Below, piece by piece: positions 43,855 to 45,225 of a stretch of DNA of 64,000 bases. Under the pieces are notes generated by a model. That model saw only the letters and a program-made list of their open reading frames with translations. It had not been told where the DNA came from and searched no databases. Source of the DNA: Myxococcota bacterium (GTDB lineage: Bacteria > Myxococcota > XYA12-FULL-58-9 > JALHOP01). The translations under genes were made by a program, and so were the position numbers. Numbering within the stretch: position 1 is the first letter of the stretch; each line of letters opens with the position of its first letter. The DNA lies in assembly GCA_022842935.1 (NCBI GenBank), contig JALHOP010000014.1, positions 58,053 through 122,052 on the forward strand. The letters are read 5' to 3'.

Positions 43855-45225
43855 TCAGCTTCCACCTTCGGGCGGCGTCGAGGTGTCGGCAACCCGCCCG
43901 TCACGGAAGCCGCGCTCGCGCATGTCGTATTCCATCTGCTCGCGTGTCTTCATTTCTGGCCCAACGCGGTCTTGTCCGTTGAGGATGGCGAACTGGTCGG
44001 CGGTCACGTCGATCACCATGGGGCCAGCGGCCGTGTCGATCTGAACGGCGTAGTGATTCATGCCGTTCTCCTCGGACGAAGGATATTCGATGACGACAGG
44101 ATTGGACTCTGGCGCGTTTTGCGCAAGCTGATCACGCAGGCGTTCCGAGTATTCGAAGCAATACAGAGGCAGGTCGCGCATCGTGTATTCGGCATAGAGA
44201 TCGCCGACCGCGATCTCGATAGGTGAATACATGGGGGCGGGGCTCATCTGCTCGATCATTTCCTCGACCGTCATCGCGGACTGGCCGCTACCCGGCCGCT
44301 CGGTCGCGGCGGCTTCGCCTTCTTCGGCGTCGTACGACCCGTAGCCCAAAGACGATTGGAGGTAGCCTGCGCCGGGCGCCTGGCCAAAGCCACCGACTCG
44401 GTCGGCGGCCGCCGCCTGCAACGACGCAATGCCGCTATCCATGCGCACACCGACGATGCCCTCGACGTTCGTAGAGTTCGCGGCGAGAGTTTCTTCGGCC
44501 CAATCGAGCGCCGATCTGCCGGGCGCTGAAGCCGCCATGCGAACGTCGTCGATGTCGATGCCAATAGACGCGAACGAGGCGCGCATCCGCTCGTATTCGG
44601 CGTCGATTTGCTCAGGGCTCATGCCCAGCGCGGCATAGCTCGCGCGTCGCGCCCGCTCGGCTTCGCTCATGCCATCCGACTCGCCTGAGCTAGCCGCATC
44701 GGAGCCGGGGGATTGCGATGACGTCGGGTCGACCCAAGTGCCCGCGTCGAGGACGTGTTGCCCGACGCCCAACCAGTGATTCAAAGCGCCATCGAGCTGA
44801 TCCGCGGTTTCAGGGGTGTAGGCGGTCGCGAGACCGTCGAGCGCCTGCGCCGCGATTTGCGCGAGCGTTGCATTCTCGGGAACGAACGACGGGTCGAGCA
44901 GGTCGGTCGCCATCGCAGCGGCTTGGGCACCGCCACCCTCCGGCGCTTCGAAGACGGTAGGGCTGCCAACGCTCGCGGGCTCATCGCCCACTGGCAGGAC
45001 CGCGAGGCCCACTGCCTCGCTGTCGGCACCGCCTGACACGTCGTAGGAGTCCGAAAACAGGAAGCCCTGAGTCGCAAGCTCGGCAAGCGAAACCGAAGCA
45101 CCGTCGTTGGCGACATAGGACCCAGAGCTGGGGTCGACGTAGCCGATGGCCGTATTGTTGGCGTCGTAGACAGTGTTGTCATCGGCGACGGTATACGTTT
45201 CGCCTGTGGGTGACCGTACTTGCAT
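43855..45225 (-). CDS. Acidic secreted-effector/toxin-like protein with conserved N-terminal domain shared with the giant protein at 51800..56995
   Basis: 456 aa, no signal peptide. RBS AAGGAAA. N-terminal MQVRSPTGETYTVADDNTVYDANNTAIGYVDPSSGSYVANDGASV..LAVLPVGDEP aligns at about 60% identity (by eye) with the giant protein's N-terminus. Very acidic middle region, distinct C-terminal domain. Confidence 0.7.
   Translation of the reverse strand: MQVRSPTGETYTVADDNTVYDANNTAIGYVDPSSGSYVANDGASVSLAELATQGFLFSDSYDVSGGADSEAVGLAVLPVGDEPASVGSPTVFEAPEGGGAQAAAMATDLLDPSFVPENATLAQIAAQALDGLATAYTPETADQLDGALNHWLGVGQHVLDAGTWVDPTSSQSPGSDAASSGESDGMSEAERARRASYAALGMSPEQIDAEYERMRASFASIGIDIDDVRMAASAPGRSALDWAEETLAANSTNVEGIVGVRMDSGIASLQAAAADRVGGFGQAPGAGYLQSSLGYGSYDAEEGEAAATERPGSGQSAMTVEEMIEQMSPAPMYSPIEIAVGDLYAEYTMRDLPLYCFEYSERLRDQLAQNAPESNPVVIEYPSSEENGMNHYAVQIDTAAGPMVIDVTADQFAILNGQDRVGPEMKTREQMEYDMRERGFRDGRVADTSTPPEGGS

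Follow-up and report, generated by a model that had tools for sequence, protein, structure and literature searches.

A previously undescribed N-terminal module in a small family of candidate modular toxins or effectors from a Myxococcota-like bacterium

The 64-kb stretch of DNA analyzed here (the window) encodes two acidic proteins, of 456 and 1731 residues, that begin with the same roughly 60-residue domain (the N-domain). The reading that we favor, with a probability of about 60%, is that the pair represents a very small family, confined to one lineage, of exported toxins or effectors built from modules, in a deep-branching, uncultured Myxococcota-like bacterium, with the N-domain as the proposed export handle. 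There is good support for a modular toxin/effector family whose N-terminal module is new; the trafficking role of the N-domain, and its route, are what we infer.

Results

Two acidic proteins with a common N-terminus

The gene of the shorter protein, P0001, starts at the first ATG after a stop codon, and its product is laid out, from N- to C-terminus, as N-domain, linker, helical module, low-complexity region and Cys-His-Asp domain:

43855..45225, minus strand: P0001 gene (open reading frame and translation), 456 aa, acidic and lysine-poor, spanned by the layout above
45052..45225, minus strand: P0001 N-domain, residues 1-58, six or seven short beta strands and one short helix
44935..45051, minus strand: P0001 linker, residues 59-97, with the mini-motif LAVLPVGDEP, pLDDT <50
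44476..44934, minus strand: P0001 helical module, residues 98-250, from the alignment to the homologue P0002
43906..44238, minus strand: P0001 C-terminal conserved block, residues about 330-440, with Cys356, His391 and Asp406, from the alignment to P0002

The longer protein, P0003 (the giant), has its start on record in the protein collection at MAMQVT (56995), with a GAGGTG ribosome-binding site upstream, and its homology to P0001 starts at MQVT (56989):

51800-57175, minus strand: full open frame of the giant
51800..56995, minus strand: giant P0003, 1731 aa, acidic, polymorphic-toxin-type, pI 4.26, 0 Cys, 1.5% Lys
56816..56989, minus strand: giant N-domain, residues 1-58 counted from MQVT (BLASTP, MAFFT, tblastn, HMMER)
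55730..56572, minus strand: two tandem repeats of about 120 aa each, residues 140-262 and 302-420
54830..55459, minus strand: central 'ALF(R/K)YD..FGV' motif and Gly/Ala-rich region, residues 511-720, common to P0004
53447..53608, minus strand: pre-toxin TG (PT-TG) domain (PF14449), residues 1128-1181, with DPNTGAQLS
51803..53446, minus strand: C-terminal putative payload region, residues 1182-1729 (motifs and sub-threshold PDB matches)

P0001 is the most acidic protein of the window (D+E 16% against K+R 4.6%) and has a single Lys in its 456 residues and a sole Cys, Cys356. A halophile-type acidic proteome was rejected as the source of this acidity, since other proteins of the window have pI values of 4.7-10.7. 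Lysine depletion is selective and family-wide: family members contain 1/456, 0/407, 4/796, 2/618 and 26/1731 lysines, whereas lysine makes up about 1-7% (mostly 3-7%) of the other window proteins for which it was counted. With pI values of 4.05 and 4.26, P0001 and the giant are outliers, and in the absence of a Sec signal their composition would be of the exported type.

A folded N-domain under purifying selection

The two N-termini match in BLASTP with 88 bits (E=3e-22), nearly gap-free over the first 60 residues, and in the MAFFT alignment they are 59% identical over 88/94 residues, LAVLP..D.EP included. The original prediction had described a domain of about 85 residues at about 60% identity, followed by complete divergence; the identity stands, and so does the divergence (BLASTP gives no significant similarity past about residue 90), but the domain is smaller. 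In the AlphaFold2 models, residues 1-58 form a small antiparallel beta meander (pLDDT about 87-90) and residues 59-97 a low-confidence linker; given this split in pLDDT at residue 58, we describe the shared region as a domain of roughly 60 aa and a linker that bears a short conserved motif. This linker motif is common to P0001 and the giant and, in part, to the further carrier P0005. With tblastn, exactly two copies of the N-terminal region are found in the window, the next best match having E=0.1.

At the DNA level, identity of the two coding regions falls to about 70%; among 66 codons, 19 differences are synonymous and 27 non-synonymous, dN/dS is 0.13 and dS is saturated at 2.3. The low ratio and the saturation point to an old paralogy kept by selection, and not to recent duplication or chance: the N-domain is under purifying selection. 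These values bear directly on the idea that the common N-terminus is a functionless by-product of insertion, i.e. a 5' gene end and promoter copied along with mobile cassettes. Both genes do lie within repeat-bracketed insertions (see below). Against this idea, besides the selection signal, which largely refutes it, the upstream non-coding DNA is not conserved, 44-58% identity is kept in proteins from other metagenomes and the fold of the N-domain is predicted with confidence, so that we regard it as very improbable.

The N-domain is all-beta, with a pattern of beta-hairpin repeats and [DN]xxG tips. Pfam, NCBIfam, PDB and BFVD contain nothing that matches it specifically (the BFVD structure search gave no hit at an E of 0.001 or less), PDB sequence searches with P0001, the giant and the C-domain profile returned nothing relevant, and neither Pfam nor NCBIfam equates it with a housekeeping domain. 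To judge from these comparisons, the roughly 60-residue module is previously undescribed. The lack of a Sec signal, also part of the original prediction, is visible directly from both sequences: neither N-terminus carries a hydrophobic Sec or lipoprotein signal. The first 25 residues contain 10-14 S, T, N, Q, P or G and 0-1 basic residues, and are predicted to be folded beta strands (pLDDT about 90). Typical T3SS signals are disordered and occupy the N-terminal 20-30 residues, without being cleaved.

Few carriers, different architectures

The N-domain is extremely rare: in an exhaustive HMMER scan of 1.84 billion (1.84e9) representative proteins, only five carriers were identified, P0001, P0003, P0004, P0005 and the fragment P0006. 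Four of the five N-domain occurrences begin at residue 1-3, and the four full-length carriers have four different downstream architectures. The database-wide enumeration proposed with the original prediction thus gave diverse C-termini instead of the one fixed architecture that would have refuted it, and the label 'polymorphic' rests on four proteins. P0005 has the N-domain alone in common with the other carriers, while P0004 combines two N-domains (the second internal, residues 185-250), a helical module of the 456-aa type, a central region of the giant type (28% identity to the giant over 235 residues, E=4e-9 in BLASTP) and a novel C-terminus. The helical module of P0001, with helices predicted at pLDDT 55-74, is found whole in P0002, and its residues about 100-165 also in P0004. 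P0002 is one homologue (47% identity) of the part of P0001 outside the N-domain; it has the 456-aa type payload, and a GT4-like partner gene, but a different N-terminus without the N-domain. Modules are thus shuffled between family members. Within the giant, the two tandem repeats are 33% identical to each other (E=3e-18, BLASTP of the two segments).

Word-indexed protein searches yielded little for this family: the full 456-aa query returned only itself and P0002, and the N-domain profile only the fragment P0006. The N-domain pattern had no relatives in GTDB species genomes (a collection from which the source genome is absent) or in JGI metagenomes. For CcmF, the best relative comes from a Myxococcota MAG (58% identity). 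The other hits of the N-domain profile, P0007-P0018, long repeat proteins with at most 12 partial matched stretches each, were rejected as low-complexity/repeat artefacts, P0008 being an unrelated Cys-rich repeat.

Putative payloads

The C-terminal block of P0001 is 69% identical to that of P0002, and the Cys, His and Asp are invariant between these two sequences. Both proteins match Tox-PLDMTX (PF15645) over 31 residues only, in the His-Asp region, with scores (P0001 E=0.033, 14.8 bits; P0002 E=0.026, 15.1 bits) far under the 26.1-bit cut-off. In the low-confidence AlphaFold2 model (pLDDT <50 for residues 249-391 and 40-51 for 391-440, where two sequences are aligned), Cys356 is near the N-terminal end of a predicted helix (352-370), and His391 and Asp406 are on consecutive strands. 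Searching PDB with the C-domain profile gave no relevant match.

The triad residues of the Pasteurella multocida toxin (PMT) are C1165, H1205 and D1220 (PMC3498931). The order Cys, His, Asp of this C3/dermonecrotoxin domain recurs in P0001, with the same His-Asp spacing of 15 and a near Cys-His spacing (40 in PMT, 35 in P0001); in the model the similarity would extend to a Cys near the N-terminal end of a helix and to His and Asp on adjacent strands. We infer that the block is a predicted papain-like domain of deamidase, transglutaminase or protease type.

In the giant, the PT-TG domain scores 33.8 bits against a cut-off of 23.5 (E=3.4e-8); Pfam does not find this domain in P0001. The region downstream has no Pfam or NCBIfam match and contains two motifs resembling kinase catalytic loops, YLGDVQPGDFML..IVPLDM and VVDNNAENFTY..ANFDP. 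Its PDB matches are sub-threshold, to the ABC1/UbiB-type kinase-like 5yjz (E=0.12, aligned on the GDAHPGNFML..IDF loop) and to PknA kinases (E about 0.16), and a kinase-like reading may serve as a lead only. A word-indexed search with the C-terminal 675 aa returned nothing, not even the giant itself, which makes that negative uninformative.

As to the toxin reading, two observations count against it in their own right: the toxin assignments of the payloads are sub-threshold, and the C-terminal model of P0001 has pLDDT <50.

Insertion-like segments

Direct repeats bracket both genes, each duplicating the end of a neighboring gene:

42745..42870, no strand: left copy of a roughly 125-nt direct repeat bracketing the GT4-like and P0001 gene pair
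45408..45535, no strand: right copy of the same repeat, at the authentic 5' end of an M3 peptidase gene
51738..51784, no strand: left copy of a 47-nt direct repeat bracketing the giant gene
57283..57329, no strand: right copy of the 47-nt repeat, within the 3' end of the ECF sigma gene 57218-58468 (minus strand)

The longer copies are about 85% identical (ungapped score 56; 40 random sequences reached 18 at most), the right one comprising 35 nt upstream and about 30 codons of the peptidase gene; the shorter copies are 87% identical (score 31, random maximum 18), and each encodes RIELARD(L/F)YD(T/K)AI. From this bracketing we take both genes to have been inserted, in agreement with the insertion-like location originally proposed. 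The flanks of the P0002 module differ from those of P0001. The window has no tRNA gene, no integrase or transposase is present among the window ORFs scanned, and the GC content around the two genes is unremarkable.

Partner genes and immunity

Next to the two genes, on the same strand, lie the following:

42902..43801, minus strand: GT4-like glycosyltransferase, 299 aa (Pfam Glyco_transf_4, 32.5 bits against a cut-off of 28.5)
51259..51792, minus strand: 177-aa ORF starting 7 nt downstream of the stop of the giant, GC3 0.74

The GT4-like gene is 53 nt downstream of the P0001 gene, and its product is 61% identical to that of the gene directly downstream of P0002 (at locus L001), which makes it a conserved partner of the 456-aa type payload. 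The 177-aa ORF, with no Pfam or PADLOC match and its first 19 codons within the left direct repeat of the giant, is possibly an immunity or partner gene, or a remnant. The P0005 gene is followed by a NuoL-like gene and no candidate immunity gene. Overall, no recognizable immunity protein is encoded downstream of P0001, the giant or P0005. The original designation as a polymorphic toxin/effector family is therefore borne out in part: the shared N-domain, the four architectures and the PT-TG domain of the giant favor it, and the Cys-His-Asp match of P0001 does so weakly, but no classical immunity gene was recognized.

The neighborhoods also bear on the view that these are cytoplasmic effectors of intracellular conflict, defense or regulation, with the N-domain as a sensor or interaction module. 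The P0005 gene adjoins a PIN/RHH toxin-antitoxin pair and Imm11/SUKH immunity-type genes are present elsewhere in the window, which, like the missing signal peptide and the lack of an adjoining secretion gene, would suit such a role. However, no PADLOC defense family matches any family member or partner (a defense-system origin was rejected on this basis), PT-TG marks exported polymorphic toxins, and a protein of 1731 aa with extreme acidity, few lysines and zero cysteines is atypical among the cytoplasmic enzymes of the window. We consider a cytoplasmic role improbable.

Secretion systems

The T3SS-like translocon noted in the original prediction is real, the SseC gene scoring above its cut-off and adjoining a TPR chaperone gene:

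92-4836: T3SS translocon operon (TPR chaperone, SseC family, SseD-like)
92-457: TPR chaperone gene of the translocon operon
583-2046: SseC family gene, 36.4 bits against a cut-off of 30.2
3793-4836: SseD-like gene, weak match

The T3SS core apparatus genes lie outside the window, and the P0001 and giant genes are 40-50 kb from the operon. No secretion, adaptor or small chaperone-like gene adjoins the P0001, giant or P0005 genes. PAAR, DUF4150, MIX, FIX, Rhs and VgrG gave no Pfam/NCBIfam match in P0001, the giant or the scanned neighboring window ORFs, among which there are no vgrG, hcp or adaptor genes either; LXG or other known trafficking domains were not detected in P0001 or the giant.

If the proteins are exported, a T3SS is a tentative choice of route, on account of the translocon operon 40 kb away and of the position of the domain at the extreme N-terminus; a T6SS would be a clearly weaker candidate, and the remaining probability, larger than either share, goes to another route.

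Discussion

Each member combines a roughly 60-residue all-beta domain at residue 1-3, a flexible linker and interchangeable modules and putative payloads. In the mechanism that we propose, the N-domain would act as a handle recognized by a dedicated export machine, or by its adaptor or chaperone. P0001 would deliver a papain-like Cys356-His391-Asp406 enzyme (of deamidase, transglutaminase or protease type) and the giant the roughly 550 residues that follow its PT-TG domain and contain kinase-like motifs. Two observations stand against the export-handle reading: the N-domain is predicted to be well folded, and it also occurs internally in P0004 (185-250).

A related possibility is that the proteins are exported toxins or adhesins in which the N-domain binds target cells, glycans or the cell surface, or mediates oligomerization, export being specified elsewhere. 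[quoted passage not shown] The internal duplication of the domain in P0004, and the fact that P0002 keeps payload and partner gene without it, would also fit. Nevertheless, a start at residue 1-3 in most occurrences is unusual for binding and typical of a sorting module, and no other export signal is visible in the carriers; we find the binding alternative rather unlikely. The comparison with beta-flower domains (PF21784, PF21785; PMC10584680) itself cuts both ways: short antiparallel hairpins and [DN]xxG turns are alike, whereas the P0004 match (17.2 bits against a cut-off of 38) is sub-threshold, and the modeled N-domain appears as an open six- to seven-strand meander without an enclosed helix, a flower being closed, with 8-12 strands.

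A more specific version of the export-handle reading would make the N-domain the recognition module for the T3SS with the translocon. The carriers would then be the first identified myxobacterial T3SS cargo, lysine-depleted effectors that enter eukaryotic or prey cells by injection, with the giant as a PT-TG/T3SS-effector hybrid and both gene modules spreading as small cassettes that insert at gene ends and duplicate them. We hold this version to be unlikely as a whole.

Modular toxins and effectors are found mainly via recognizable N-terminal trafficking domains, and the present family adds an N-terminal module from Myxococcota that is confidently folded and, as far as sequence comparison reaches, previously undescribed. 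If the N-domain is an export handle, it would provide a tag for heterologous delivery, leads to at least three new payload domains and a search key for cargo of the T3SS-like machine of Myxococcota, which is involved in contact-dependent killing and whose substrates are not known (PMC12075869, PMC11509652). Several oddities are testable: a predicted papain-like payload has a GT-B glycosyltransferase as its conserved partner, the whole family is depleted of lysine, and the insertions resemble cassettes and duplicate the ends of neighboring genes.

The polymorphic toxin systems in which PT-TG (PF14449) occurs belong to the Zhang/Aravind classification. The N-terminal module common to the paralogues P0001 and P0003, the long central repeat/filler regions of the giant, the position of its PT-TG domain immediately ahead of a variable putative payload at the C-terminus, and the module shuffling and inserted segments of the family all resemble such systems. 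On the other hand, the N-domain is not VgrG/PAAR, WXG/LXG, FHA/TPS or Rhs, these genes are not followed by a recognizable immunity protein or an orphan cassette array, P0001 is without PT-TG, and no curated toxin family matches the putative payloads above threshold. PT-TG is a marker of polymorphic toxins that belong to T6SS, T7SS and CDI systems, and a recognized trafficking domain is absent from many of the proteins that carry it (PMC13483458).

The other close comparison is with Salmonella SPI-2 effectors, from which the family differs in that the N-domain has no sequence similarity to the STE domain and forms a folded beta structure of about 60 residues (the STE domain has about 140), and in that the giant carries PT-TG, which is not known from T3SS effectors. 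The T3SS translocon operon in this window is a point of likeness. SPI-2 effectors, encoded at scattered loci, are directed to T3SS translocation by a common N-terminal STE/WEK(I/M)xxFF domain, while their C-terminal enzymes are unrelated, and one of them, SseI/SrfH, joins an STE-type domain to a PMT-C3-like Cys-His-Asp domain (PMC3498931), which, by analogy, would be the same two-part design as the one proposed here for P0001.

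Two window proteins share an old N-terminus

The proteins considered here are encoded by two genes on the same strand:

43855-45225, minus strand: 456-aa protein (P0001), beginning at the first ATG behind an upstream stop
51800-57175, minus strand: large open reading frame of the giant protein, in which homology to the 456-aa protein begins at MQVT (56989)

In the protein collection the giant starts at MAMQVT (56995; P0003, 1731 aa), with a GAGGTG ribosome-binding site ahead. BLASTP aligns the two proteins with 88 bits (E=3e-22), nearly without gaps in the first 60 residues, and in a MAFFT alignment the N-termini are 59% identical over 88/94 residues, LAVLP..D.EP motif included, which confirms the originally predicted sharing of about 85 residues at about 60% identity. 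These are the only two copies of the domain found by tblastn in the 64-kb window. Since the coding DNA of the two N-termini is ~70% identical, with a dN/dS of 0.13 and saturated dS, and since a comparison of the non-coding DNA upstream of the two genes revealed no conservation, the common N-terminus is real, old and under purifying selection. Neither protein has a Sec or lipoprotein signal, as is directly visible in the sequence.

In the AlphaFold2 models, residues 1-58 reach a pLDDT of ~90 in full-length and domain-only runs alike and are predicted to form six or seven short beta strands and one short helix (47-52), followed by a linker of low confidence. The sequence pattern is one of beta-hairpin repeats with [DN]xxG turns. 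The window copies of this N-domain have no match in Pfam or NCBIfam, and a BFVD search gave none at E <= 0.001; the copy in P0004, another carrier of the domain, has sub-threshold matches to DUF3659 and to beta-flower families (a fold described in PMC10584680). PAAR, MIX, FIX, LXG/WXG, Rhs and other curated trafficking domains were rejected as identities, no such match being obtained, and the same applies to known housekeeping domains, an identity that would have spoken against the original prediction.

Distribution and host

A profile built from the two N-termini was scored with HMMER against all 1.84 billion cluster representatives, and only five proteins carry the domain: P0001, P0003, P0004 (796 aa), P0005 (618 aa) and the fragment P0006 (48 aa). 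All other matches were weak, came from repeat proteins and were set aside. No carrier turned up in pattern scans of GTDB species genomes and JGI metagenomes, and in the sequence data now available the family is extremely rare.

The best match of the CcmF encoded in the window is from a Myxococcota MAG (58% identity), and the host is therefore taken as a deep-branching Myxococcota-like Gram-negative bacterium; genes for a lipid A acyltransferase, Tol-Pal and Ccm system I are also present. Additionally, a 401-aa membrane protein (50031-51236, plus strand) has a match to the TLC family of ATP/ADP transporters (E=1.6e-17, 64 bits), the best-scoring stretch being the C-terminal end of the profile only. 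Transporters of this family are typically found in energy-parasitic intracellular bacteria, and the gene could therefore be informative about the lifestyle of the organism.

A modular family with variable payloads

The domain does not recur with one fixed architecture: the four full-length carriers have four distinct ones, in agreement with the predicted combination of a conserved N-terminal domain and variable downstream parts.

Table. Architecture and lysine content of the N-domain carriers and of P0002, a homologue of the 456-aa payload
456-aa protein: N-domain, linker, helical module, low-complexity region, C-terminal conserved block; Lys 1/456
Giant: N-domain, two ~120-aa repeats, 'ALFRYD..FGV' motif and Gly/Ala-rich region, DG-rich beta region, PT-TG (1128-1181), ~550-aa C-terminal region; Lys 26/1731
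P0004: N-domain, 456-type helical module, second N-domain (185-250), giant-type central region, novel C-terminus; Lys 4/796
P0005: N-domain and ~550 novel residues; Lys 2/618
P0002: helical module and C-terminal block of the 456-aa type; Lys 0/407

The central region of P0004 resembles that of the giant with E=4e-9, and the two ~120-aa repeats of the giant resemble each other with E=3e-18. P0002 (407 aa), which comes from another metagenome, is 47% identical to the 456-aa protein overall and 69% in the C-terminal block; its N-terminus is unrelated and Pro/Ala/Ser-rich, and the space upstream is too small for an N-domain. The giant's PT-TG domain scores 33.8 bits, above the Pfam gathering score of 23.5, and contains a DPNTG motif. 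This pre-toxin domain occurs in polymorphic toxins tied to T6SS, T7SS and CDI systems, and in many of the proteins that have it no trafficking domain can be recognised (PMC13483458). Judged by architecture and by this PT-TG domain, it is well supported that the N-domain is a new N-terminal beta domain defining a modular toxin/effector family. Within this family the domain may serve trafficking, and the payloads may be enzymatic.

The block of the 456-aa protein that is conserved best contains its sole cysteine (C356); H391 and D406 follow, and all three residues are invariant in P0002. A low-confidence model has C356 close to the N-terminal end of a helix, with H391 and D406 on consecutive strands. 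His and Asp are as far apart in the sequence as in the triad of the Pasteurella multocida toxin (C1165/H1205/D1220; PMC3498931), and both proteins have weak Tox-PLDMTX matches across the His-Asp region (E ~0.03, below the cut-off). From these features we infer a candidate papain-like payload: a deamidase, transglutaminase or protease. A GT4-family glycosyltransferase gene (42902-43801, minus strand, 299 aa; 32.5 vs 28.5 bits; short GT-B) lies 53 nt downstream and shares 61% identity with the gene immediately behind P0002 (locus L001, 3157-4095), so that the payload-glycosyltransferase pair is conserved independently of the N-domain, being kept in two different genomic contexts with or without it. 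This partner may act in immunity, as a modifier or as a second effector.

The region of the giant behind PT-TG has no curated family match. Its residues ~1505-1729 (window 51803-52477) contain two kinase-like catalytic-loop motifs, YLGDVQPGDFML..IVPLDM and VVDNNAENFTY..ANFDP; the best PDB matches of the first motif region are an ABC1/UbiB-type kinase-like protein, aligning on the catalytic loop, and PknA kinases, all sub-threshold (E ~0.1-0.2). A kinase-like C-terminal region is thus a possible lead, not a result. A 177-aa ORF with coding-like GC3 begins 7 nt past the giant's stop and has no family match.

Behind P0005 lies a NuoL-like gene, and P0005 is therefore left with no candidate immunity gene. 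In two independent metagenome contigs (L002, 2972-3619; L003, 221-457), the direct neighbour of P0005 is a PIN/RHH (FitAB-like) toxin-antitoxin pair in divergent orientation. Elsewhere in the window, a 335-aa protein (36883-37890, minus strand) combines Imm11 and SUKH-1 (SMI1/KNR4) immunity-type domains, and two ORFs upstream on the same strand, 37978-38634 (218 aa) and 38659-39603 (314 aa), have no family match; this region could represent a further toxin-immunity locus, or the immunity gene could be an orphan.

Direct repeats bracket both genes

The prediction of insertion-like segments is supported by direct repeats:

42745-42870 and 45408-45535: ~125 nt, ~85% identity, bracketing the GT4-like and 456-aa gene pair
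51738-51784 and 57283-57329: 47 nt, 87% identity, bracketing the giant gene

Their ungapped scores are 56 and 31, respectively, whereas 40 random sequences of equal composition reached 18 at most. Each pair duplicates an end of the adjacent gene: the right ~125-nt copy is the authentic 5' end of a divergent M3 peptidase gene, and the right 47-nt copy lies inside the 3' end of an ECF sigma gene, both 47-nt copies encoding RIELARD.YD.AI. Neither bracketed segment contains an integrase or transposase. The 456-aa module has a slightly reduced GC3 (0.75-0.77 vs ~0.80-0.84 in the neighbours), and the P0002 module stands in a different context with no such repeats. A 604-aa ORF (41060-42874, plus strand) with a weak Exo_endo_phos match takes its last ~43 codons from the left ~125-nt copy, in a frame other than that of the M3 peptidase start; the insertion may thus have reshaped the 3' end of this ORF.

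Delivery route and comparison with known systems

The T3SS-like translocon that had been noted is indeed present, as a four-member operon at the window start (92-4836):

92-457: TPR chaperone, class-II-type
583-2046: SseC-family protein, above the Pfam cut-off
2303-3751: second membrane protein, 482 aa
3793-4836: weakly SseD-like protein

Behind it, three ORFs of no assigned function (714, 372 and 334 aa, within 4904-9083) could be further substrates. The T3SS* of Myxococcus xanthus is reportedly needle-less, which makes a translocon in this Myxococcota-like genome notable. For Myxococcota, two publications describe a T3SS-like machine used in predation, for which no substrates are known (PMC12075869; PMC11509652).

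The N-domain proteins might themselves be delivered by a T3SS, as the strictly N-terminal position of the domain would suggest, although P0004 carries it internally as well; similarly, the first 25 residues are polar and nearly devoid of basic residues, yet the domain is predicted to be folded. Salmonella SPI-2 effectors with a common N-terminal translocation domain, the PMT-like SseI among them, provide a precedent (PMC3498931), but PT-TG is not known from T3SS substrates and no chaperone or T3SS gene adjoins. T6SS markers were absent from the proteins and window ORFs scanned.

In composition, the 456-aa protein (pI 4.05) and the giant (pI 4.26) are the two most acidic proteins of the window (others pI 4.7-10.7). 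Lysine is selectively depleted across the family, arginine being reduced only mildly; most other window proteins contain 3-7% lysine. Paucity of lysine is known for toxins that need to survive in the eukaryotic cytosol, and the depletion could be a hint, and only a hint, of such toxins here. As in translocators, cysteine is absent from the giant and P0004.

A myxobacterial T3SS link, if demonstrated, would be of high interest, which is otherwise moderate. The family belongs to a known kind, that of polymorphic toxins and effectors whose N-terminal modules are shared, and the N-domain itself is new.
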